This document shows, one piece after another, positions 655 through 39,870 of a stretch of 43,603 nucleotides of DNA. A model generated the notes under the pieces. It did not search any database. It worked only from the letters and a program-made list of their open reading frames with translations, and had not been told where the DNA came from. Source of the stretch: Patescibacteria group bacterium. GTDB taxonomy: Bacteria > Patescibacteriota > Minisyncoccia > Phycocordibacterales > Phycocordibacteraceae. Made by a program: the position numbers and the translations under genes. The stretch's first letter is position 1. Each line of letters begins with the position of its first letter. The stretch is taken from the NCBI GenBank assembly GCA_004296925.1, contig SCVI01000069.1, positions 1 through 43,603 on the forward strand. Reading direction: 5' to 3'.

Positions 655-2856
655 CTATTGAAAGTGTTCTACAGCAATACTTAGAGGGGGGCTCATATCA
701 CGGATACCTTTAGGAAGATGCATATTTACAAAATTAGTCACGTTTGTTGCTTTCCGTTTTCTCCCAGCTTTATTGATATGAATTACAGGATTTCGTTTTA
801 TTGCTGTTGTATTGCTATGAAAATTAATTACTAAAATATTCGGATTTGATTTAAGCTCTGCAAGCTCTTTTTCACTTATGCTGCTCAATGGTACATCCTT
901 TAGGATTAGCAACTGCTTGGTAGAACCCGTTGCATACAGCAGTCCATTTGGCTTATTGGCAAATTTTGTATCCCAACTTTTTATTACGAATGTGGAAGTA
1001 GAAGTATTATCTAAAGCTGTTTTTTTTGTAGAAATATCTTTTTCATCCAAAGCAACCTCTACTGCCCTCTGAAATACCTCAAACATCTTAAGGTTTACCT
1101 TCGCCACAATGTCTCCTATTTCACGTGCTGCTTCTCTCGTTTGCTCTGCTGTCGCATATAGACGCTCCTCTGGCTTGCTCAAATATTCATACAGTTCAAG
1201 GTGTTTGGTGTATACACTATGAAGATTTATACCGGAAAGATTTTCTCCATCTCTCTCGGAAGTAATCTCTTCATAATCATCAAGAAAAGAATTATCCTCA
1301 AATTTAGTGGGGAGGTCATCCAAATCGTTAGCAGTACGAATTAGCTGTTTCATTCCTTTTATAAATGTCTCATCTTCGGGAAAAAGTTGGTCAAATTTCT
1401 CTAATTCTCGATGCTGTCCTGTCCAAGAGTATCGTTCTAGTTGATCGGCTGAAATATCTAGCTTTTCACTTGGTGTTAAATCTTCTCCTTGAAGCACTCC
1501 CATTCTTGAAAGAAGTAGAACCAAATTCCTTACATGCTCAGAGTCATTAAGATTAATTGTAAACTCTCGTTTTATGTTGTTGTTTGCAAAGGCAAAAACT
1601 TCTGCTTGAAGATGCGAATTAGCTTGCCAAAAGAATTTTGGAATTTTTGAGTAGTATTTATAAAATCGATCAATATAATCATAAATTTTAGCTGCATCAG
1701 TATAGTGTTTATCAATTTTCTTAAGAGTTTCTGTATCTATATATTGTTTTCCCTCTGCATCAAATTCTGATAAGTCATTAAGTAAGTTCTTCAGGGTAAA
1801 GAAATCATTTGCGGATTTAAAGAGAAGAAATTTCTTTAGTTCTCCAGATTCTTCATTCTCTTGCTCTATTGTAAGAACTTTGTCCAAGTATAGATTCATC
1901 TCCTCGCTTGTTGGGGTAGGGAGATAATATACATGGGTAAAAAGCGTAGGGTATTTACTCTCAATACGGCTTTGTTGTGTAAAAGCGTATGCTTTTTGAT
2001 TACAAATAAAAATAAAATGTGCAAATGACCGTCCAAAAAGATTTTTGTATTCTTTAATTGCATCTAGAGCTTCTTCGGCTTCATCTTTATCAAGCTCGTC
2101 AATTATAAAGACAATTTTCTTTCCATCTCTTTTACTTTCTAGCCATTGTTCAAACTTGGTTTCTAAATATTCTGGTGAATCATCAATACTATAACTGTCT
2201 TGGTTTTTAAAAGTGTTTTCAAAAATCTTCTCCCAGCTCCATTCAAATTTAAATCCAAGAGAAAAAGGTAAAGATAATACTCCGATTAGTCCTAGTAATT
2301 TAAGCCAAATACTTTCAAAAAATATACCCAATGTTCCAAATAATATGCCACCTATGACAAGACCAAGGCGTGCAAAGTTCCCTTCAATATTCTGAGTGAA
2401 TTGGGCAAGAATATTTTTCTTCGTTTTGTTGCTTGAAGCATTTAATAGCTCACTTGATTTTTTAAATTGCCCTATACTTTGATAATAGAGCTTTTCTATA
2501 TCAACGTCTTTTGCGAACTGTTCTGTTAAAAAGCTCGCTCTGATAAGGGAGGTTAAAAACGCCTTCCCGATTAAATCCTTTTCCTTCGATGCATCACGCA
2601 ATGTGTGTCCTACATTTACAAAAATAGGAATGATTTCATTACGAATTTCTGAAAGAGCTCTATGAACAAAAGTAGTTTTCCCAACACCTCTTACCGCAGA
2701 TACCAAAATTGTACTGGAAGTATTATTGGATATGGCATGCTTTAAGCTATTGACTTCCTTAACTCTACCTATAAAAACATGCTCATTTCTGTCTTTGCCG
2801 AAACCAAATTGTTCTGACCAATGGTCTCGAAAATAGAGTTTCATATTGCCTAACAA
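655..2856 (-). CDS. P-loop NTPase with transmembrane insertion (KAP-like / AAA_16-like), large helical C-terminal domain
   Basis: 733 aa. FIGRxxE...SAVRGVGKTT forms Walker A. Two hydrophobic helices (LGLVIGGILFGTLGIFF and LLGLIGVLSLPFSLGF) follow, then KIVFIIDELDK forms Walker B and FIFICNQ resembles sensor 1. Membrane helices between Walker A and B are the hallmark of KAP-family NTPases. Confidence 0.7.
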   Translation of the reverse strand: MLGNMKLYFRDHWSEQFGFGKDRNEHVFIGRVKEVNSLKHAISNNTSSTILVSAVRGVGKTTFVHRALSEIRNEIIPIFVNVGHTLRDASKEKDLIGKAFLTSLIRASFLTEQFAKDVDIEKLYYQSIGQFKKSSELLNASSNKTKKNILAQFTQNIEGNFARLGLVIGGILFGTLGIFFESIWLKLLGLIGVLSLPFSLGFKFEWSWEKIFENTFKNQDSYSIDDSPEYLETKFEQWLESKRDGKKIVFIIDELDKDEAEEALDAIKEYKNLFGRSFAHFIFICNQKAYAFTQQSRIESKYPTLFTHVYYLPTPTSEEMNLYLDKVLTIEQENEESGELKKFLLFKSANDFFTLKNLLNDLSEFDAEGKQYIDTETLKKIDKHYTDAAKIYDYIDRFYKYYSKIPKFFWQANSHLQAEVFAFANNNIKREFTINLNDSEHVRNLVLLLSRMGVLQGEDLTPSEKLDISADQLERYSWTGQHRELEKFDQLFPEDETFIKGMKQLIRTANDLDDLPTKFEDNSFLDDYEEITSERDGENLSGINLHSVYTKHLELYEYLSKPEERLYATAEQTREAAREIGDIVAKVNLKMFEVFQRAVEVALDEKDISTKKTALDNTSTSTFVIKSWDTKFANKPNGLLYATGSTKQLLILKDVPLSSISEKELAELKSNPNILVINFHSNTTAIKRNPVIHINKAGRKRKATNVTNFVNMHLPKGIRDMSPPLSIAVEHFQ

Positions 2857-2898
2857 TATGCCCTTAAAAGGGAACCTGCAAGGCGATTATTGCTTATT

Positions 2899-3555
2899 TT
2901 AACTACTCAGACAGTTTTGGTATTCATCATTCAGCAAGACATTTATTTTATCTATTGCTTGTTGTTTGCTCGCCTCAATTTCTTTCTTTTGATTTCCCCA
3001 AAAAGCCTGTTGGTTATTGTAGGCTTCATTCGCTAGTTGCGACGCATTGTAATTATATTGTGAGGTGAGATTAGCTTTTTGAACACCAGTCATCATGGGA
3101 TCTATGGCAGATATCTGAATACTCGCATTACTGTAAATCTTGCTTACTGCATCGTTGTATTGTTGTTGTAGAGCAGCAAATACTTCTTGAAGCTTTTTAT
3201 CTACAGTTGCGTTAAGTTTTTGAATGGAACTATCGTAGGAAGTTTGTTTATCCGCTTTACATTTTTCAATCTTTAAATTTATACTTTCTTGAATACTTAT
3301 TACTGGTTCAGCAACTTTTGCTTCTTGTTGAGGAATCTTTTTTGTTGATTTAGAAACATCCCCAACCTGTTTCTTTTCTTCCTCGATTGGAGCAGCACTT
3401 TCTGATTGAGGAGTTGATATTTGTTCTGCCTGTTGTGATTTTTGTTTCTCGTCAAAATACTTAATCCCGAAATATCCGGCTGTAGCTGTTGTACAGAGAA
3501 GGGCTACTATACCTATCAAAAGAGGTATTTGTATGAATCCTTTTTTCATATGCAT
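2899..3555 (-). CDS. Membrane-anchored coiled-coil protein, Q/N/K/S-rich ectodomain
   Basis: ORF track 2899..3657. The likely start is MHMKKGFIQIPLLIGIVALLCTTATAGYFGI (ATG at 3555 or 3549), because the upstream extension overlaps a 10-bp hairpin. One N-terminal TM helix is followed by a long low-complexity helical region. It lies 42 nt downstream of the NTPase on the same strand. Confidence 0.55.
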   Translation of the reverse strand: MHMKKGFIQIPLLIGIVALLCTTATAGYFGIKYFDEKQKSQQAEQISTPQSESAAPIEEEKKQVGDVSKSTKKIPQQEAKVAEPVISIQESINLKIEKCKADKQTSYDSSIQKLNATVDKKLQEVFAALQQQYNDAVSKIYSNASIQISAIDPMMTGVQKANLTSQYNYNASQLANEAYNNQQAFWGNQKKEIEASKQQAIDKINVLLNDEYQNCLSS

Positions 3556-3654
3556 TAGTCCAGTTAATGCTTTTTGATAAATTTGATAATGACCAACACA
3601 AAACCCGCCACTAAGCTGGGAGGCTTGCGCCTCTGTCAGGGTTTCCCCTGACAA

Positions 3655-3743
3655 CACTGGACATGCCCAAACCTAATGACGGGGTCTGTATGTCCAGTGC
3701 TTTGCTGCCATGCCTAGAGTTTTAAGGCTCTAAGTTTAGGCAT
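3655..3743. repeat. Structured element copy 1
   Basis: A 10-bp stem, CACTGGACAT (3655-3664) with ATGTCCAGTG (3690-3699), encloses the loop motif CCTAATGACGGGGTCTGT. A second stem follows: ATGCCTA (3710-3716) with TAGGCAT (3737-3743). Confidence 0.5.
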
Positions 3744-4174
3744 CGGGATATTCTGTTGTCCTAGGTAGTTTACCTCTCTTTCCCTAGCTCTGAAAATGCA
3801 ACGTGTATATTGACTCATCGATTTTTATTGTCTTATATGGTTTTTCAATATTATTGAAAACACAAAGTTGATTTCTATTTCAGCTTGCAAATAAAGAGTA
3901 GAAAAAGAATCAAAAAAGGGAAAAGTACAAATGGATTTAGCCTTTTAAAAAAGCATTTTGTAAAAACAGAAAAAATGTCTTGCAACTTCCTTTCGTTTGA
4001 TTATGATTTTCTTAGATTAGCCGTCGGGTTAATCCAACATCAAGCACTTTTTGACACCATCGGGAAAAATAAAGTACCGACGCATATAGCCTCCACTGCT
4101 GAAGTCGCATAACACTTCACAGAGTGTGAGAAAAAATCCATACAGTGAGCAACCCTCACTGACTAGAGAAAGCT

Positions 4175-4600: not shown

Positions 4601-6145
4601 ATGAAAAAATTAACTGTTCTTAATCGCCCTAAAACAGCAATCATTTACACAAGGGTATCTTCCGATGAACAGGTGCAAGGGTATAGCCTTGATGACCAAG
4701 AAAGAATTTGCAAAGATTATTGCAAACGCAATAAGCTTGAACCCTTAAAGGTATTTAGGGAAGAAGGTGAATCGGCAAAATCTCTTGATCGGACGCAGAT
4801 GACATTAATGATGGAATATTGCATGCGCAATGTAGGAAAGGTCGGCTTTATTGTCGTGTACAGAACAGACAGGTTCTCTCGCAACGCCACAGACCATATC
4901 GTTCAAAGAAAGGCGTTCAGAGATTATGGTGTTGAATTAAGATCGGCTGTTGAGCCAATTGATGAGACTTCGCATGGAAAATTCTTTGAACACATGCTCG
5001 CTGGTCTGAATAATCTTGATAACGACATGAGGACGGAAAGAACTGTCACGGGGATGCGTTCCAAGGCTCTTGATGGTTATTGGTCTTGGGGCGCTCCTTG
5101 GGGGTATAGAAATATAACTGATGTGACAGGAAGGCGTGTCATTGAACCACATCCTCAAAGAGCACCGATTGTGAAATTTCTCTTTGAGGAATATTCAAGA
5201 GGAACCAGAACATTCCGTGAACTTGCAGCAGAAGTTAATGAAATGGGAGACCTGCGTAGCAAGCATGGCTTAAAGATGAGTCATCAGTTAGTGCAAAAAA
5301 TTCTTACCAACCCAATTCATTGCGGAAAAATTGATGTTCCAACTTGGGGAATAGCTACTGAAGGAAAGCATGAGCCTATTGTTTCAGTTGAACTCTTTGA
5401 GGAAGTTCAAAATGTTATGCGAGGTGGCAACTCAAGAACGCAACCGCGAAATATAAATAACCCTGATTTTCCACTCAGAGGAGTTGAATGTTTGTGCGGT
5501 ACCCATATCTCCGGAGGATATGTAACAGGTCGGAGTAAGCGTTATGGATATTACGGTTGTACAAATACAAAGTGTCCCTACAAAAAAGCAATACCAAAGC
5601 AAAAACTAGAAGATAGCTTCACCGAGTTTCTACAGAGATACACGCCAGAAACCAATCTAATGGAGGCTCTTGCGGAAGCTCTAAAGATTGTTCATAGGAA
5701 GCAGAAAAGGCAGAATACCCAACAGACACAAAAGCTTAAACAGAAAATTGAGAAACTAGAAAGGGAGCTAGAGGATTTGCTACAACTGCGGCTTGAGCAA
5801 ACTATAGACAACAGAGATTTTCTTGTTGAAACAGACAAGAGAAAGATTCTGAAGAGAGAAATAGAGGTTGCCTTACAGAATCTGCAGACAAGCAATGCCG
5901 ATGAAGAGTCAGCAATAGATTTCGGCATCAAGCTCATTGAGCAACTGCCACTTCTCTGGAAAGAACTAGAGCCAGCTGAACTGAGGCTCTTGAGAAACTC
6001 TCTCTTTCCTAAAAACATTCAATACACCGATGCTGGTTTTAAAACCGCTGAATTATCACCAATTTACAAGGTAAAAGCCGCATCTGGAACAGATGAAAAT
6101 CGTTTGGTGACCCCACGGGGAATCGAACCCCGGTTCCAAGCTTGA
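4601..6145 (+). CDS. Large serine recombinase (resolvase/invertase N-domain, recombinase domain, zinc ribbon, coiled coil)
   Basis: 514 aa. AIIYTRVSSDEQ is the catalytic-serine motif. VVYRTDRFSRN is present. The Cys cluster is CLCGTH...YYGCTNTKCPYK. A long charged coiled-coil follows (QKLKQKIEKLERELEDLLQL). The last 41 nt run antisense through tRNA-Glu. Confidence 0.9.
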   Translation: MKKLTVLNRPKTAIIYTRVSSDEQVQGYSLDDQERICKDYCKRNKLEPLKVFREEGESAKSLDRTQMTLMMEYCMRNVGKVGFIVVYRTDRFSRNATDHIVQRKAFRDYGVELRSAVEPIDETSHGKFFEHMLAGLNNLDNDMRTERTVTGMRSKALDGYWSWGAPWGYRNITDVTGRRVIEPHPQRAPIVKFLFEEYSRGTRTFRELAAEVNEMGDLRSKHGLKMSHQLVQKILTNPIHCGKIDVPTWGIATEGKHEPIVSVELFEEVQNVMRGGNSRTQPRNINNPDFPLRGVECLCGTHISGGYVTGRSKRYGYYGCTNTKCPYKKAIPKQKLEDSFTEFLQRYTPETNLMEALAEALKIVHRKQKRQNTQQTQKLKQKIEKLERELEDLLQLRLEQTIDNRDFLVETDKRKILKREIEVALQNLQTSNADEESAIDFGIKLIEQLPLLWKELEPAELRLLRNSLFPKNIQYTDAGFKTAELSPIYKVKAASGTDENRLVTPRGIEPRFQA

Positions 6146-6179
6146 AAAGCTTGTGTCCTAACCGTTAGACGATGGGGCC
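6105..6179 (-). tRNA. tRNA-Glu (anticodon UUC), CCA encoded
   Basis: The reverse complement folds as GGCCCCA / D-arm / CAAGC-TTTTCAA-GCTTG / CGGGG-TTCGATT-CCCCG / TGGGGTC-A-CCA. Confidence 0.9.
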
Positions 6180-6355
6180 GAACGAAAAGGAAAATGAATG
6201 CCTCGATTCATTTTCTTTGAGAGAGGCCACGCTTAGCCGAAGGCGACTGGGGCCACATACACTTTTCGTAGCAAGTACGGTCTACCTAAAAGGAAGGCCG
6301 TGTCAAAAAATATAGCATTTTGAGCGGAAAATGCTAGAATCCAGCGAGTTCTAGA

Positions 6356-6518
6356 AATGGAGAGGTGGCTGAGTGGAGGAAATAAGAACTACTTCTTATT
6401 TCCTCCGATTCCGTTTCGGAAAAAACTTTCTGTCTCATTTTATGAGAAAAAGTTTAGGAGGACGAACTTGTTCGAACACTCAGCCTCCTATATCCTTAGA
6501 TTTCGTCACTAGTGTGAC
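6356..6518 (+). repeat. tRNA-Ser 5'-flank module
   Basis: The 21-nt repeat AATGGAGAGGTGGCTGAGTGG occurs at 6356-6376 and 6519-6539. The spacer has hairpins (AGGAAATAAGAA-CTAC-TTCTTATTTCCT, TTCCG-TTT-CGGAA, TCTCAT-TTT-ATGAGA). CACTCAGCC (6477-6485) is antisense to GGCTGAGTG of the repeat. The spacer ends in GTGAC. Confidence 0.6.
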
Positions 6519-6521
6519 AAT

Positions 6522-6608
6522 GGAGAGGTGGCTGAGTGGTCGAAGGCACCACACTCGAAATGTGGCGTACGGGAAACTGTACCGAGAGTTCGAATCTCTC
6601 CCTCTCCG
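6522..6608 (+). tRNA. tRNA-Ser (anticodon CGA), long variable arm, no encoded CCA
   Basis: GGAGAGG acceptor, anticodon loop CTCGAAA, variable arm CGTACGGGAAACTGTAC, T-arm GAGAG-TTCGAAT-CTCTC, 3' strand CCTCTCC-G. Confidence 0.9.
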
Positions 6609-6790
6609 CACCTGATATAAAGATGCCCCGTGAGGGGTTTTCTTTATATCAGGAGGACGAGATTCGAAAACCGGAGCACGAAGGGCGAGGTCGGGCTGGC
6701 GCACTCGACGCATCGTCGCGCCGTAGGGCGTAAGTGAGAACCGGTGTCAAAATGCTTAGTGACGGGAGCCGAATCTCTCCATCTCCGCCA
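6609..6790 (+). repeat. tRNA-Ser 3'-flank module
   Basis: A long hairpin lies at 6611-6653. The antisense T segment GAGATTCGAA lies at 6659-6668, followed by AACCGGAGC, GC-rich hairpins and a terminal GTGAC. The copy CGAATCTCTCCaTCTCCGC at 6770-6788 matches 6591-6609 at 18 of 19 positions and ends in CCA. Confidence 0.6.
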
Positions 6791-28771: not shown

Positions 28772-29347
28772 TTAGTTTTTATGGAAAGTTCGCCACTCGT
28801 AGTCTTTTAATGTGACGAGTTCAAGTTCTGGACTAGTGCCAATGAGCATCTCTACACTGGTCTTAGAGGGCGGTAGTGTCTCGCTTTCAAAGTGGCAGAT
28901 GAGACGTATCGGCACTATGCCGAGACCTCGTCTCATTTCCTTTAAGGAATGTGACGCGCCATATCGAGCAAGTGTGTAGGCGCCCGCAGAAGAGCCTGCA
29001 ATTGTTTTACCCTCAATTTCATTTTTAAAATCAGGATAATTTTCGAGAGTTTTAAGAAGTTTGTCAGTGTTTCCTCCATTAAGAAAAATAGCGTCTGCGA
29101 TATTCACTTGATGAATAAAATCTTTTTCATTTGCAAGCAATACCGTCACAGTGTTTGGAGTAATGTTTTCTAGAATCATTTTCCTGTGTTCCTCGAATCT
29201 GGTGTCAATGTTGTCATCTGTTGATGCAAAATACACCAAGAGAATTGTTCCATTATTTGGAACATCTTTTGCAAGTTCTGTAAAAAATGTTCGATTCAAT
29301 TCATTCGGTTCTCGGGTGTATCCGCCGTGGAGAATAAACTTTGTCAT
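28772..29347 (-). CDS. Peptidase S51 (dipeptidase E-like)
   Basis: FLNGGNTDKLLKTL and IAGSSAGA (nucleophile serine box). Confidence 0.6.
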   Translation of the reverse strand: MTKFILHGGYTREPNELNRTFFTELAKDVPNNGTILLVYFASTDDNIDTRFEEHRKMILENITPNTVTVLLANEKDFIHQVNIADAIFLNGGNTDKLLKTLENYPDFKNEIEGKTIAGSSAGAYTLARYGASHSLKEMRRGLGIVPIRLICHFESETLPPSKTSVEMLIGTSPELELVTLKDYEWRTFHKN

Positions 29348-29367
29348 AGTGTCTTAAAACGTTTTGT

Positions 29368-29525
29368 ATGCTTTACATACAATATCGTAGACTCATTGTA
29401 TGTAAAGCATGCGCGTTGCACTCGTTCGGAAATAATAATGCGAGCATTATTATTTCACTCACTCATGTGGGACCTCGTAGGTCCCACATAAAGTGTTTAC
29501 ACTGAGTGAGTGCAACGAGTCGAAG
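29368..29525. other. Highly structured intergenic segment (nested inverted repeats)
   Basis: A 16-bp perfect inverted repeat: ATGCTTTACATACAAT (29368-29383) with ATTGTATGTAAAGCAT (29395-29410). Further hairpins are GAAATAATAATGC-GA-GCATTATTATTTC and TGTGGGACC-TCGT-AGGTCCCACA. ACTCACTCA pairs with TGAGTGAGT. Confidence 0.5.
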
Positions 29526-29699
29526 TGTGGGCGGAAGAGGACTTGGTCACACATAAAATTTCTGACGAAATTTTTGCCCGACCCTGGCTCGGCAATTTTG
29601 CCTTATGCTTCGCATAAACAAAATTACACCTCCGCTTTTCAAGTCCTCACGCACGCAAAACAATTTGCGTGCTTTCCGCCTACACTCGTAAACTCATTG
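29526..29699 (-). repeat. tRNA-Leu(TAG) 3'-flank module
   Basis: The 20-nt repeat TGTGGGCGGAAGAGGACTTG occurs at 29526-29545 and 29698-29717. The plus-strand TTCAAGTCCTC at 29638-29648 is antisense to the T-loop and 3' T-stem on the tRNA strand. GTCAC abuts the distal copy. The hairpin is GCACGCAAA-ACAA-TTTGCGTGC. Confidence 0.65.
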
Positions 29700-29781
29700 T
29701 GGGCGGAAGAGGACTTGAACCTCCACCCCTTGCGGGACCAGCTCCTAAGGCTGGCGCGTCTGCCAATTTCGCCATCCGCCC
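29700..29781 (-). tRNA. tRNA-Leu (anticodon UAG), long variable arm
   Basis: The reverse complement reads GGGCGGA..CCAGC-CTTAGGA-GCTGG..TCCCGCAAGGGGT..GGAGG-TTCAAGT-CCTCT-TCCGCCC-A. Confidence 0.9.
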
Positions 29782-29918
29782 AATAGGGGAGATTGTACAC
29801 TATTCTATTGAAAAAGAATCATATCTGCATTACAGTGATGGAATTCCGCCAGTAAGCATAGCTTTCGGGCGGTCACTTCTGAGATAATGTTTATAAAGAA
29901 TCATTGATCTTCTCAGTT

Positions 29919-29991
29919 CCGCCCGTAGCTCAGTTGGTAGAGCAGCTCCCTCTTAAGGAGACGGTCGTAGGTTCGAGCCCTACCGGGCGGA
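29919..29991 (+). tRNA. tRNA-Lys (anticodon CUU) with a C1-G72 acceptor pair
   Basis: CCGCCCG-TA-GCTC-AGTTGGTA-GAGC-A-GCTCC-CTCTTAA-GGAGA-CGGTC-GTAGG-TTCGAGC-CCTAC-CGGGCGG-A. Confidence 0.85.
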
Positions 29992-30001
29992 CAACTAATC
30001 T

Positions 30002-30559
30002 TTAAAACGTGTATAGGTACAAAGTGTGTTTATTGTATCCTTTGCCGATTTCGACAGTGCGTTCAAATTCTTTTGATTTGAAAGGGAAGTCACACGAGAC
30101 GACTATAGTTCCAGGACGCAAGTCTTTATTGAGTTTTGGGAGTAACGACTCCACAACCTCTGGAAATAGATACATATACACATGTGTCGCATCTGCAAGT
30201 GATACTTTAGAAAAATCTTTGAAAAGTACTTTTGTGTTTGAAAGAGGTTTTTTCCAAAATCGAAATAGAGATAAAAAGTATGGGAGTGGTGCTTTTTCAA
30301 CACCGATTGCGCGTGCAGTGGGGCAGTCTTCAGCTAACGCAGCAATCACGCGTCCATCACCCGAACCAAGATCATACAGAACATCACCGGATTTTAGAGG
30401 AATCGTAGTTCTGGTGGCGTCTACAATTTTTTGTGATACTGGCACATAGGGGACTTTAACTGCAAGGATTCCATATGTCATGAATAAAATAAAAAGAACA
30501 CTAAAAAGCCACGCGATTGTTAACATGAGATAAAGAATGACAAAAAGAGTGAATTCCAT
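30002..30559 (-). CDS. Membrane-anchored class I SAM-dependent methyltransferase
   Basis: N-terminal TM helices, then VLYDLGSGDGRVIAALA (motif I). Confidence 0.55.
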   Translation of the reverse strand: MEFTLFVILYLMLTIAWLFSVLFILFMTYGILAVKVPYVPVSQKIVDATRTTIPLKSGDVLYDLGSGDGRVIAALAEDCPTARAIGVEKAPLPYFLSLFRFWKKPLSNTKVLFKDFSKVSLADATHVYMYLFPEVVESLLPKLNKDLRPGTIVVSCDFPFKSKEFERTVEIGKGYNKHTLYLYTF

Positions 30560-30583
30560 TTCGAACAGTATAACCCTTTTCTT

Positions 30584-30762
30584 TTTGTGCCCGGGGTGGG
30601 CGACCAGGAGGTCGTACCGAGAGGGGCTCGGCTACCAGTTTCGGCTCTCCTACGTTCGCCTCTCTGTCAGCCCCAGCTCGCGGTTTTCAGAGACTGAAAA
30701 CACCGCTCCGCTTTTCGAGTCCAACACGCATACGAAGCAGTTCGTATGCTCCAATCACTTTG
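30584..30762 (-). repeat. tRNA-Leu(TAA) 3'-flank module
   Basis: The 17-nt repeat TTTGTGCCCGGGGTGGG occurs at 30584-30600 and 30759-30775. The plus-strand TTCGAGTCCaAC at 30713-30724 matches the T-loop and 3' stem sequence at 11 of 12 positions, in antisense orientation. The hairpin is GCATACGAA-GCAG-TTCGTATGC. Confidence 0.6.
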
Positions 30763-30844
30763 TGCCCGGGGTGGGACTCGAACCCACACTTCTTACGAAA
30801 CTCGATCTTAAGTCGAGCGCGGCTACCAATTACGCCACCCGGGC
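30763..30844 (-). tRNA. tRNA-Leu (anticodon UAA), long variable arm
   Basis: The reverse complement reads GCCCGGG..CTCGA-CTTAAGA-TCGAG..GTGGG-TTCGAGT-CCCAC-CCCGGGC-A. Confidence 0.9.
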
Positions 30845-30889
30845 AGGCACCACTATTTCTACCATGAAAAATTCTTAGACTACAGTTTT

Positions 30890-31030
30890 GAGGCCATGGC
30901 GGGAATTGGTCACCCGTCATTTTGTGCCGTCACACAAAATGCGCTCGACCCCGACTCGGCATTTCGTGAGACACAAAATATGCCTCCGTCTTTCAATTCC
31001 CGACGTAAAGCGTGCAGATGCTTTACTCAA
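30890..31030 (-). repeat. tRNA-Cys 3'-flank module
   Basis: The 19-nt repeat GAGGCCATGGCGGGAATTG occurs at 30890-30908 and 31033-31051. The plus-strand TTCAATTCCCG lies at 30992-31002. GTCAC abuts the distal copy. The scaffold motif GCTCGACCCCGACTCGGCA (30943-30961) matches the Leu(TAG) module at 29576-29594 at 16 of 19 positions. Confidence 0.65.
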
Positions 31031-31105
31031 TGGAGGCCATGGCGGGAATTGAACCCGCGCATCGCGGTTTTGCAGACCGCTGCGTTACCACTTCGCCACA
31101 TGGCC
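31031..31105 (-). tRNA. tRNA-Cys (anticodon GCA), CCA encoded
   Basis: The reverse complement reads GGCCATG..GCGGT-CTGCAAA-ACCGC..CGCGGG-TTCAATT-CCCGC-CATGGCC-T-CCA. Confidence 0.9.
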
Positions 31106-31119
31106 GTATCGCTACAATA

Positions 31120-31434
31120 CTACGCACTTGGCGTATCGTCGACTCCCATATCAGGGTCGGGGAGAAATACCGCGCGCGGAAGCACGTGTAGTCGTGTTTT
31201 GGATTTTAAAAATGACCTAAACTCGTCCGATTGTCTTGAAAGAAAATCGGTGACTGCGTGTGTTTGGTCTTTCGGATACACACTCACGTAAATACGAGCT
31301 TTTTTCCCCGCATCTTCTAATTCTACTCGTGTGACGGTGATGAGAGAGCGCCGATTAGATTCACGGTTTATAAATATTGCAGCGGCGTCTTTAAGCTCCG
31401 AAGCTAAACGATTGTCTCTATGATCAGTATTCAT
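31120..31434 (-). CDS. rbfA: Ribosome-binding factor A
   Basis: 104 aa. Contains RLASELKDAAAIFI...ITVTRVELEDAGKKARIYVSVYP. Its start overlaps the infB stop. Confidence 0.8.
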   Translation of the reverse strand: MNTDHRDNRLASELKDAAAIFINRESNRRSLITVTRVELEDAGKKARIYVSVYPKDQTHAVTDFLSRQSDEFRSFLKSKTRLHVLPRAVFLPDPDMGVDDTPSA

Positions 31435-38501: not shown

Positions 38502-38584
38502 GCGTCGGTACTCAAGTGGTCAACGAGGGGAGACTGTAAATCTCCTGACTTCGGTCTTCGTTGGTTCGAATCCAACCCGGCGCA
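38502..38584 (+). tRNA. tRNA-Tyr (anticodon GUA), long variable arm
   Basis: GCGTCGG-TA-CTC..GGGAGA-CTGTAAA-TCTCC-TGACTTCGGTCTTC-GTTGG-TTCGAAT-CCAAC-CCGGCGC-A. Confidence 0.9.
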
Positions 38585-38748
38585 CAGAAACAAAAACCAG
38601 CCCCTCAGGGGGCGATTTTTGTCTGTGCGTCGGAGCAAGGCATAGGAATGCCTTGCGTGTTGGATTCGAAAGGTCGAGCATCTGAGTAAGCGAAGCGCTC
38701 AGGCGAGACCTGTACAGGGTTCTGTAAGAACCGAATCCAACCCGGTGC
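38585..38748 (+). repeat. tRNA-Tyr 3'-flank module
   Basis: A long hairpin lies at 38585-38626. A copy of the 5' acceptor strand, TGCGTCGG, lies at 38626-38633. The hairpin GCAAGGCAT-AGGA-ATGCCTTGC follows. The antisense T segment GTTGGATTCGAA lies at 38659-38670. The copy CGAATCCAACCCGGtGC at 38732-38748 matches 38567-38583 at 16 of 17 positions. Confidence 0.65.
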
Positions 38749-38850
38749 TCACCCTGCGAAGCGCAGGCCCTCACTTCCCTGCGGAAGTCCCGATGCCGGA
38801 CCCTTCCGCCTTTTTCATCCTTTAACTATCATCCTGAGGGAACAATTAAT

Positions 38851-39684: not shown

Positions 39685-39755
39685 GGGCCTATAGTTCAAT
39701 GGTAGAATTACGGTCTCCAAAACCGTCGATCAAGGTTCGAATCCTTGTGGGCCCG
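39685..39755 (+). tRNA. tRNA-Trp (anticodon CCA)
   Basis: GGGCCTA-TA-GTTC..ACGGT-CTCCAAA-ACCGT..CAAGG-TTCGAAT-CCTTG-TGGGCCC-G. Confidence 0.9.
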
Positions 39756-39870
39756 CTACATAGTCATATGTAAAGATCCGAAAGGATTCGAACCGTAGCC
39801 GTAGGGAGCGAAGAGCGACCGTAGGTCTCGAGTCGCAGTAGCGACGAGAGGCGAATCCTTGTGGGCCCGC
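39756..39870 (+). repeat. tRNA-Trp 3'-flank module (short form)
   Basis: The antisense T segment AAGGATTCGAA lies at 39782-39792. The 19-nt copy CGAATCCTTGTGGGCCCGC at 39852-39870 is identical to 39738-39756. Confidence 0.65.

Follow-up and report, generated by a model that had tools for sequence, protein, structure and literature searches.

The question raised by this locus was what kind of element follows most of its tRNA genes and carries sequence matched to each of them. The window, meaning the whole stretch analyzed (contig SCVI01000069.1 of a Patescibacteria group bacterium, 43,603 nt), contained eight tRNA genes detected by ARAGORN. Six of these (Leu-UAG, Leu-UAA, Cys, Ser, Tyr, and Trp) had a module of 90–180 nt on their 3' side, leaving tRNA-Glu and tRNA-Lys as the only window tRNAs without one; an unfiltered search of the window with the covariance model (CM) R1 returned six units and no others. 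The modules have a strand-specific conserved fold, arms matched to the adjacent tRNA or tmRNA, patchy occupancy at orthologous sites, and mosaic scaffolds, all of which we regard as firmly established. The fold encoded by each module is that of a single strand, most simply an RNA. The reading that we favored, to which we gave about an even chance, was that the module is a small cassette that enters tRNA and tmRNA genes at the T-loop with a replacement 3' end, and that its RNA mimics or pairs with the acceptor/T-arm half of the tRNA.

On the tRNA strand, each unit began with the tRNA, which was followed either by a short trailer or by a hairpin resembling a terminator and bearing A and U tracts. 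About one-third of units then had a copy of the 5' acceptor strand, and next came a hairpin, P0, with a loop that was often AACUGCUU. There followed CGU, an antisense arm (T-stem 5' strand joined to a T-loop complement), AAA, and the 3-bp helix P2a, which enclosed an internal loop (GGAG/CGA) and a variable hairpin, P2b. A single G led into P3 (GGGUCG, a variable hairpin, and GUGAC), and the unit closed with C56 and the remaining 3' part of the tRNA, here called the terminal or distal copy. The antisense paired with this copy formed helix P1, closing a three-way junction; where the acceptor copy was present, P1 extended as an acceptor-like stem, and P0 interrupted the closing helix. The scaffold consensus was GAAA-NNN-GGAG...CGA-NNN, then GGGGUCG...GUGAC, and approximately 35 nt around the junction were highly conserved. 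In the Leu(UAG) and Cys modules of the window, the parts were located as follows:

29699–29781, minus strand: tRNA-Leu(UAG) (ARAGORN; Rfam tRNA, 56.7 bits)
29526–29698, minus strand: Leu(UAG) module, starting at the first base past the tRNA and including the whole terminal copy (CM R1, 72.8 bits)
29674–29680, minus strand: GGCGGAA, copy of the tRNA-Leu(UAG) 5' acceptor strand, paired with UUCCGCC of the terminal copy in the minimum free energy (MFE) fold
29651–29672, minus strand: P0 hairpin GCACGCAAAUUGUUUUGCGUGC of the Leu(UAG) module, with homologous hairpins bearing the AACUGCUU loop in many loci
29638–29648, minus strand: Leu(UAG) antisense arm GAGGACUUGAA, complement of tRNA positions 54–64 (inverted repeat, 11/11)
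29629–29640, minus strand: Leu(UAG) GAAA junction, P2a 5' strand, and GGAG internal loop, GAAAAGCGGAGG, with P2a covarying in 81 sequences
29576–29594, minus strand: Leu(UAG) core UGCCGAGCCAGGGUCGGGC (columns 75–91 of alignment A2), made up of the P2b end, CGA loop, P2a 3' strand, G-rich junction, and P3 start
29546–29575, minus strand: Leu(UAG) P3 distal A/U hairpin and conserved GUGAC (29546–29550), which directly adjoins C56 of the terminal copy; P3 was 90% paired, with a conserved G·U pair
29526–29545, minus strand: Leu(UAG) terminal copy CAAGUCCUCUUCCGCCCACA, equal to tRNA C56–A73 plus CA (direct repeat, 20/20)
31031–31105, minus strand: tRNA-Cys(GCA), CCA encoded (ARAGORN; Rfam)
30890–31030, minus strand: Cys module (CM, 84.7 bits; fold z = -3.5)
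31005–31026, minus strand: P0 of the Cys module
30992–31002, minus strand: antisense arm of the Cys module
30983–30994, minus strand: GAAAGACGGAGG of the Cys module
30943–30961, minus strand: core of the Cys module
30909–30913, minus strand: GUGAC of the Cys module
30890–30908, minus strand: terminal copy of the Cys module

The sequence-only reading had proposed that the Leu(UAG) and Cys modules share a homologous scaffold in which only the tRNA-specific arms are exchanged, and its structural parts were largely borne out. The 3' parts of both tRNAs recurred exactly (29526–29545 equal to 29698–29717, 20 nt; 30890–30908 equal to 31033–31051, 19 nt), with direct-repeat spacings of 172 nt for Leu(UAG) and 143 nt for Cys and with the repeat running from T-loop C56 through the discriminator plus 1–2 nt. 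The 11-nt antisense segments matched the T-arm at 100% in both modules (29638–29648 against 29709–29719 and 30992–31002 against 31043–31053; T54–C64). Direct comparison of the two 19-nt cores (29576–29594 and 30943–30961) gave 16 of 19 identical positions, a degenerate core pattern having a chance expectation of 0.01 per window, and the motif GAAA(A/G)NCGGAG was present at 29629–29640 and 30983–30994. Both modules folded as proposed, with a common architecture (z = -7.5 and -3.5), the MFE fold of the Leu(UAG) module comprising a closing stem, P0, and the three-way junction. Of the terminal motif, GUGAC was common to the two modules, but the preceding bases were not (UGUGUGAC versus CGGGUGAC). 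The likeness of this particular pair was homologous without being special: neither module was among the other's five nearest scaffolds, and the similarity was family-wide.

Covariation indicated that the homologous scaffold is a real structured element. A structure alignment (A2) of 81 sequences with 30 proposed pairs had 87% of its cells paired, compared with 68% when shuffled and 32–44% when slid, and its covariation score of 0.51 against 0.17 was exceeded by none of 500 shuffles. RNAalifold recovered P2a, P2b, and P3 independently. The middle pair of P2a was CG in 29 sequences, AU in 25, GC in 21, and UA in 4, and one G·U pair in P3 was conserved in 78 of 81 sequences, placing the fold on the tRNA-sense strand. 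A frequent variant at the antisense end, AUGAG in place of AUUCG, exchanged two Watson-Crick pairs with G57 and A58 for tandem G·A, and the GAG/CGA motif of this variant recurred in P2 and in hairpin tips. A kissing loop between P0 (AACUGCUU) and P2b was rejected, as the P0 loop was constant while P2b loops varied with no covariation. A small peptide was also rejected: GGAG followed by ATG or GTG opens short open reading frames (ORFs) in both modules, but the common core lies in different frames. No conserved ORF was found in the modules, in which overlapping ORFs were short and differed in frame from one module to another.

Where the acceptor copy is present, the module as a whole resembles the acceptor/T-arm half of the neighboring tRNA, with P0 replacing the D and anticodon arms and the junction replacing the T-loop. 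A T-stem-like P1 was general to the modules, and the distal copy extended to N73 in about 60%. A clear copy of the 5' acceptor strand was found in 28 of 86 modules (33%), compared with 2.3% of controls, and it sat exactly one P0 hairpin from the antisense or abutted the antisense directly. The combination of P1, acceptor-like stem, and junction suggested that the module RNA would both imitate and be complementary to the acceptor/T-arm "top half" of the tRNA. Taken alone, this design would also suit a stand-alone mimic, a putative substrate of RNase P, RNase Z, and the CCA-adding enzyme with the junction domain at the elbow, acting in trans as a decoy, sensor, or guide for factors that recognize the acceptor/T-arm of this one tRNA, its adjacency to the tRNA reflecting origin only. 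The frequency and fixed placement of the acceptor copy agree with such a mimic, as does a distal copy that usually reaches the discriminator; some solo modules, such as L121 (the L numbers being labels of the loci examined), combine a perfect P1 with a terminator of their own, and tmRNA, whose tRNA-like domain is itself a top-half mimic, bears the same design. A clear acceptor-like stem was nevertheless missing in two-thirds of the modules, the distal copy that such an RNA needs was the least conserved part, and for at least two solos, other mobile elements that inserted secondarily account for the solo state. Because the anticodon is required by most aminoacyl-tRNA synthetases, a general charging role for a top-half mimic is unlikely. 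We judged this explanation quite unlikely overall. Among known RNAs, the modules may resemble the tRNA-like domain of tmRNA, mascRNA-type RNAs, YrlA, and viral tRNA-like structures in having an acceptor-like stem on a T-stem-like helix, a discriminator end, and a replaced anticodon half. They differ in copying the stems of one neighboring tRNA, in having a three-way junction for the T-loop, and in having the acceptor stem in only about one-third of cases.

Both arms had been claimed to match their own tRNA and to act as specificity determinants. The match to the neighboring tRNA held for the window modules and for more than 100 loci of other genomes. As determinants, the two arms parted. The tRNA and its distal copy differed within positions 56–65 in 42 of 85 cases, and of these, 34 had an antisense in better agreement with the tRNA and 5 with the copy, with a mean number of Watson-Crick pairs (of 10) of 8.25 with the tRNA and 7.16 with the distal copy. 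The distal copy frequently had indels. It follows that the sequence of the live tRNA constrains the antisense while the distal copy drifts, and in the Cys orthologues of L243 and L246, in which the tRNA-Cys alleles differ, the antisense follows the tRNA. By these comparisons, the antisense arm behaves like a conserved specificity element. The terminal copy was often reduced to 7–10 nt or interrupted by indels, and its role as a second determinant was not upheld: its start at C56, its end near N73, and the presence and absence of modules at orthologous sites fit an att-like repeat instead.

The repeat started at C56 in all window modules and always did so across 86 loci, in which its length peaked at 18–22 nt, corresponding to an end at N73 plus 0–3 nt. 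The length distribution had tails, with one class of 24–45 nt running into the trailer and another retaining only 7–10 nt. The terminal copy fits a tRNA 3' end that was duplicated or displaced, with insertion leaving it behind as an att-like direct repeat. A retro-copy (by SINE-like or reverse-transcriptase capture) was rejected, as CCA was present in neither member of 39 of 49 pairs, in both members of 6, and in the copy only in 4; the repeat running on into the trailer, up to 45 nt, also countered this origin.

An antisense held to the live tRNA is what would be expected of a host cis-acting trailer as well. In that explanation, the co-transcribed antisense pairs either with the T-arm, blocking folding or maturation, or with the decoy copy to form P1, freeing the tRNA, and a ligand or protein sensed by the junction sets the balance and thereby regulates tRNA output. 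Complementarity, counting the GAA of GAAA, was 11 nt to the tRNA and 9 nt to the copy, the approximately 35 conserved junction nucleotides are of riboswitch-aptamer scale, and no promoter- or terminator-like sites were seen between the window tRNA-Cys, its module, tRNA-Leu, and its module. A switch of this kind is less easily reconciled with the decoy, which had decayed with the antisense intact in about 40% of modules and would leave the tRNA permanently inhibited, or with a copy that usually runs via the acceptor strand to N73, a length needless for a decoy. In many units, a terminator-like hairpin separates the tRNA from the module, the modules are dispensable and patchy at orthologous tRNAs, and tandem units of mixed type and tmRNA-linked units are unexpected for a dedicated regulator. 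We considered a host trailer unlikely. A T-box riboswitch was rejected as well, given that the modules lie 3' of the tRNA, pair to positions 54–73 and not to the anticodon or NCCA, and had no Rfam T-box match.

The occupancy of orthologous sites was followed through homologues of the methyltransferase gene at 30002–30559, which gave six syntenic loci from relatives (L243, L244, L246, L247, L248, and L249) with the common gene order IF-2, RbfA, tRNA-Cys, tRNA-Leu(UAA), methyltransferase, tRNA-Lys, and tRNA-Leu(UAG). The modules were distributed as follows:

Cys module: present in the window, L243, L244, L246, and L247; absent in L249 (42 nt to the next tRNA) and L248 (HNH gene there)
Leu(UAA) module: present in the window, L244, L246, and L249; absent in L243, L247, and L248 (25–40 nt to the start codon)
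Lys module: present in L246 and L247; absent in the window

Where a site was filled, the sequence beyond the distal copy (A/G-rich, TATACT, ATG) was homologous to the flank that stands right after the bare tRNA where the site was empty. The scaffolds did not follow the tRNAs by type. The window Leu(UAG) scaffold was nearest to the Cys module of L243 (0.78), and the window Leu(UAA) scaffold was nearest to the Cys module of L244; P2b identity between modules of the same anticodon across genomes was 0.53, against a background of 0.52. By these identities, scaffold type is independent of tRNA identity. Two same-genome pairs, Asn/Cys and Trp/Arg, had P2b regions 0.91–0.92 identical (99.9th percentile) with differing P3, from which we infer that scaffold parts are exchanged between modules within a genome. 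In L185, two tandem units had different scaffold types, each with its own distinct terminator.

The HNH endonuclease gene of L248 (3411–3893) lies between tRNA-Cys and tRNA-Leu(UAA) in a locus with no Cys module. The last approximately 50 nt of this gene are kept as a remnant in L247 (about 3815–3880), and the window has a weaker similarity to the remnant at 30845–30889, just upstream of tRNA-Leu(UAA).

Integrase-mediated integration reportedly uses tRNA and tmRNA genes and T-loop-to-3'-end direct repeats, as Williams is said to have described in 2002. Like such integrative elements (tyrosine-integrase prophages and islands), the module stands 3' of an intact tRNA or tmRNA gene and is bounded by a T-loop-to-3'-end direct repeat, the proximal copy completes the gene while the distal copy is displaced, and tandem arrays and filled and empty orthologous sites occur. 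A direct repeat of the tRNA 3' end and filled and empty sites with a continuous flank were thus found, and an integrase inside the unit was not. Unlike integrative elements, the module is 90–180 nt long (about 100 times smaller) with no integrase or other gene, its interior is one covarying fold with an internal antisense, and one family occupies all tRNA types. The genes neighboring the window modules were housekeeping genes. These likenesses invite the explanation that the modules are relics of integrase elements, prophages or islands that entered at the tRNA T-loop and were deleted down to the two ends between attL and attR. The repeats and the use of tRNA and tmRNA genes match integrase products, and serine-recombinase elements are present at tRNA genes in these genomes. 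Independent deletions, however, would not yield one covarying fold whose size is constant across more than 100 genomes, the modules stand behind six of eight tRNAs within one 44-kb window, and no unit held an integrase remnant. This was the sole rival that we considered ruled out, and relics of this kind are essentially excluded.

A gene-free cassette was favored because of the fixed C56 breakpoint, the repeat running to the gene end, the decaying distal copy, the tandem units, and the use of tmRNA. The putative cassette would have the order C56..N73, trailer, acceptor copy (where present), P0, antisense, junction, and GUGAC. Entry would take place between tRNA positions 55 and 56 by Campbell-type recombination via the common 3' tRNA segment, so that the cassette would provide the new 3' end of the tRNA, often along with its own trailer or terminator, and the original 3' end would be displaced downstream to become the terminal copy, followed by slow decay. 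Once circular or transferred, the cassette would bring its antisense and scaffold together with its own tRNA 3' segment as a single intact gene for a tRNA-like RNA. Such an intact-gene circular form would explain why the antisense matches the proximal copy, which is the cassette's own, and not the distal one.

Several points weigh against the cassette. No recombinase, transposase, or reverse transcriptase was found consistently adjoining the modules, nor was a circular form observed. The pattern of presence and absence could equally have arisen if the modules were ancestral and were lost precisely via the direct repeats, with gene conversion, and the sharing of scaffolds within a genome could be gene conversion between old tRNA-specific modules instead of copying. 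Vertical descent was evident in the scaffold identity of the Cys modules of L244 and L247 (0.92) and of L243 and L246 (0.88). We know of no mechanism by which three arm segments could be fitted anew to a different tRNA. With regard to the RNA itself, G·U mismatches in P1 (51) were no commoner than A·C mismatches (46), giving no signal of RNA-type selection in P1, and RNA cannot be distinguished by sequence from single-stranded DNA folded on the same strand. Terminator-like hairpins with a T-run were present between tRNA and module in about 60% of linkers, which would limit read-through transcription.

A bolder alternative, which we regarded as improbable, is an RNA-programmed element. Here, an RNA of approximately 150 nt would carry a bipartite guide of 10–20 nt with complementarity to one tRNA (T-loop, T-stem, and 3' strand of the acceptor), and its three-way-junction core would be a ribozyme or a handle for a putative recombinase or nuclease. 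The RNA would recognize the tRNA or its gene at elbow C56 and direct its own insertion or maintenance, with a rarer sister family acting at the D-loop partner G18/G19, and would thus be a natural, easily retargeted RNA that binds tRNAs or targets their genes. A homologous scaffold with variable target-matching segments is also a property of the bridge and seek RNAs of IS110/IS1111 and the omega and reRNAs of IS200/605, a likeness that is a functional analogy only. The modules differ from bridge and omega RNAs in having no paired internal guide loops and in having long direct repeats, not a 2-nt core. No recombinase, TnpB, or IscB gene was found beside the six window modules or in the syntenic loci, and Rfam IS605-orfB gave no match.

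The modules are like integron cassettes and CTX-phage sites in being small promoterless units with a strand-specific covarying fold that could recreate a double-stranded target, and unlike attC sites in having a highly conserved sequence core; their target is a tRNA T-loop, and no IntI or Xer link was found. A miniature inverted-repeat transposable element was rejected, as the inverted segments differ in each copy and equal local tRNA sequence, and the repeats are 18–22 nt from a fixed tRNA position. The kink-turn (k-turn) was rejected on the consensus GNC-G-GA-G...C-GA-GNC: tandem G·A is possible, but the bulge has only 1 nt, making the motif k-turn-like at most. Comparison of the core by eye with the consensuses for the hammerhead, hairpin, twister, pistol, hatchet, box C/D, H/ACA, and k-turn gave none that fits. 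Like the modules, the large or ornate orphan RNAs GOLLD and ROOL are conserved structured noncoding RNAs of unassigned function from comparative analysis, often near tRNA genes (PMC5737381). The modules are unlike GOLLD, ROOL, and LOOT in being far smaller, fused to the tRNA gene by the 3'-end repeat, and matched in sequence to that tRNA. We rated the module family as lying outside the known kinds, with a putative mechanism.

The distribution of the family was examined by scanning the motif GAAARNCGGAG..CGAGNNNGGGTC..GTGAC against one genome per GTDB species, which gave at least 120 matches. Almost all matches listed were from Patescibacteria (Saccharibacteria, Parcubacteria/Paceibacterota, and Kaiser-, Yonath-, Nomura-, Zambryski-, Wolfe-, Falkow-, and Moranbacteria), and a few were from metagenome-assembled genomes (MAGs) labeled Elusimicrobia, Gammaproteobacteria, and Bdellovibrionales; two (L179 and L188) looked like chance matches. 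The core had been expected to sit beside a tRNA at every occurrence. Among the 123 matches listed, a same-strand tRNA ended 23–120 nt upstream in 86, representing 18 amino-acid types, and the remaining 37 comprised 7 behind tmRNA, 6 later units of tandem arrays, about 9 cut by the locus end, and approximately 10–12 solo. About 89% of the evaluable listed matches were thus behind a tRNA of any kind or tmRNA. Two solo modules adjoined an IS3 transposase or a serine-recombinase fragment, which probably separated them from their tRNA, and no shared protein was found beside the solo modules. A sequence hidden Markov model placed a module behind 110 of 203 tRNAs, an occupancy biased by the fact that most of these tRNAs came from loci selected by a motif match; the same model detected only three of the six window modules and therefore misses divergent units.

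The tmRNA (ssrA)-linked modules were those of L131, L134, L136, L168, L193, L216, and L235, and their arms matched the tmRNA T-arm and acceptor 3' end. Typical modules were also present on MAG contigs labeled Gammaproteobacteria, Elusimicrobia, and Bdellovibrionales (L121, L146, L160, L178, and L187), one of which, the solo unit L121, is carried by a 313-kb contig. Either these contigs were wrongly binned or labeled, or the family extends outside Patescibacteria. An initial, looser pattern run on viral contigs returned chance matches in nearly all cases, with L007 alone being real (2830–3319, minus strand; IMG/VR UViG_3300033463_005745). L007 held nested or tandem module fragments with several partial copies of one tRNA 3' end, CAAAUCCCUCCCUCUCCG; no tRNA lay within the available sequence, which stops at the locus end. 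It seems that earlier units in L007 received later ones by insertion or recombined with them. A blastn search of 50,697 phage records for carriage of the modules gave no matches.

Rfam 15 at the gathering threshold matched only tRNAs and LOOT in the whole window, and a search of 29300–31200 at E values up to 10 gave no match on the modules. No description of the element was found in the full-text literature or in the 224-motif paper, a coverage that is incomplete and leaves an earlier description possible. The tRNA-mirroring modules are apparently a large, undescribed family.

The Candidate Phyla Radiation (CPR)/Patescibacteria make up a large part of bacterial diversity. If these findings hold, a large share of their tRNA genes, as well as tmRNA, would bear a tRNA-matched structured RNA that is unannotated in databases, the modules would account for much of the "empty" intergenic space near tRNA genes in these tiny genomes, and annotators should beware of partial tRNA copies. 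The modules would represent either a gene-free cassette that swaps tRNA 3' ends or a set of approximately 20–40 tRNA-specific guide or mimic RNAs with one protein- or ligand-binding core. They could offer a new RNA way of reading tRNA identity and, possibly, programmable tRNA-directed tools. The alignment and covariance model could be used for genome-wide censuses and for experiments in cultivable Saccharibacteria.

The remaining window modules, behind tRNA-Leu(UAA), tRNA-Ser, tRNA-Tyr, and tRNA-Trp, were located as follows:

30762–30844, minus strand: tRNA-Leu(UAA) (ARAGORN; Rfam)
30584–30761, minus strand: Leu(UAA) module (CM, 64.1 bits, match ending at 30619)
30728–30749, minus strand: P0 of the Leu(UAA) module
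30714–30725, minus strand: antisense arm of the Leu(UAA) module
30705–30716, minus strand: GAAAAGCGGAGC of the Leu(UAA) module
30621–30630, minus strand: decayed inner copy CGAGCCCCUC of the Leu(UAA) module
30584–30600, minus strand: exact 17-nt repeat of the tRNA-Leu(UAA) 3' end
6610–6789, plus strand: Ser(CGA) module behind tRNA-Ser (6522–6609; CM, 38.3 bits)
6611–6653, plus strand: terminator-like hairpin of the Ser module
6659–6668, plus strand: antisense arm of the Ser module
6666–6677, plus strand: GAAAACCGGAGC of the Ser module
6770–6789, plus strand: terminal copy of the Ser module, one mismatch
38586–38751, plus strand: Tyr module behind tRNA-Tyr (38502–38585; CM, 25.9 bits; terminator-like hairpin)
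38627–38633, plus strand: 5' acceptor copy GCGUCGG of the Tyr module
38635–38656, plus strand: P0 of the Tyr module
38659–38670, plus strand: antisense arm of the Tyr module
38732–38751, plus strand: terminal copy of the Tyr module, two mismatches
39757–39870, plus strand: Trp module with a divergent scaffold, behind tRNA-Trp (39685–39756; CM, 19.7 bits)
39783–39792, plus strand: antisense arm of the Trp module
39852–39870, plus strand: exact 19-nt terminal copy of the Trp module

In the Leu(UAA) unit (30584–30636, minus strand), the decayed copy stood right after the P3 end and the exact 17-nt copy stood 20 nt beyond it, and this double 3' copy suggests either that an insertion took place internally or that insertion occurred twice. 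The region separating the terminal copy of Leu(UAG) from the peptidase S51 gene (29356–29525, minus strand) had a cluster of perfect hairpins with 16-, 13-, and 11-bp stems as well as a 44-nt stretch (29356–29399) that was 70% identical to the start of the Leu(UAG) unit (29657–29700). This region may be what is left of an older unit, or it may serve as a terminator.

A mirror-image unit was present upstream of tRNA-Ser in the window (6348–6521, plus strand) and also in L147, L148, L154, L182, and L238. The first 18 nt of tRNA-Ser with a 3-nt leader (AATGGAGAGGTGGCTGAGTGG) were repeated 171 nt upstream, and the repeat was followed by a P0-like hairpin (loop AACUACUU), more hairpins, and a near-complement of the D-arm (ACTCAGCCTCC). 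A 5' repeat of this kind was found at 7 of 235 tRNAs in the loci examined, mostly at tRNA-Ser, with the breakpoint at D-loop G18/G19, the tertiary partners of positions 55 and 56. The mirror unit of L238 had the AACUGCUU hairpin and GAG/CGA hairpins, as in the 3' modules.

A large ORF for a serine recombinase (4601–6145, plus strand; Resolvase, Recombinase, and Zn-ribbon domains) ended in the 3' half of tRNA-Glu (6105–6179, minus strand) and probably marks the edge of an integrated element that fills the left end of the window. A LOOT RNA (RF03000, 80.7 bits; 3620–3742, minus strand) sat inside this putative integrated element, adjoining a KAP-family P-loop NTPase ORF (655–2856) and an unannotated 252-aa ORF.

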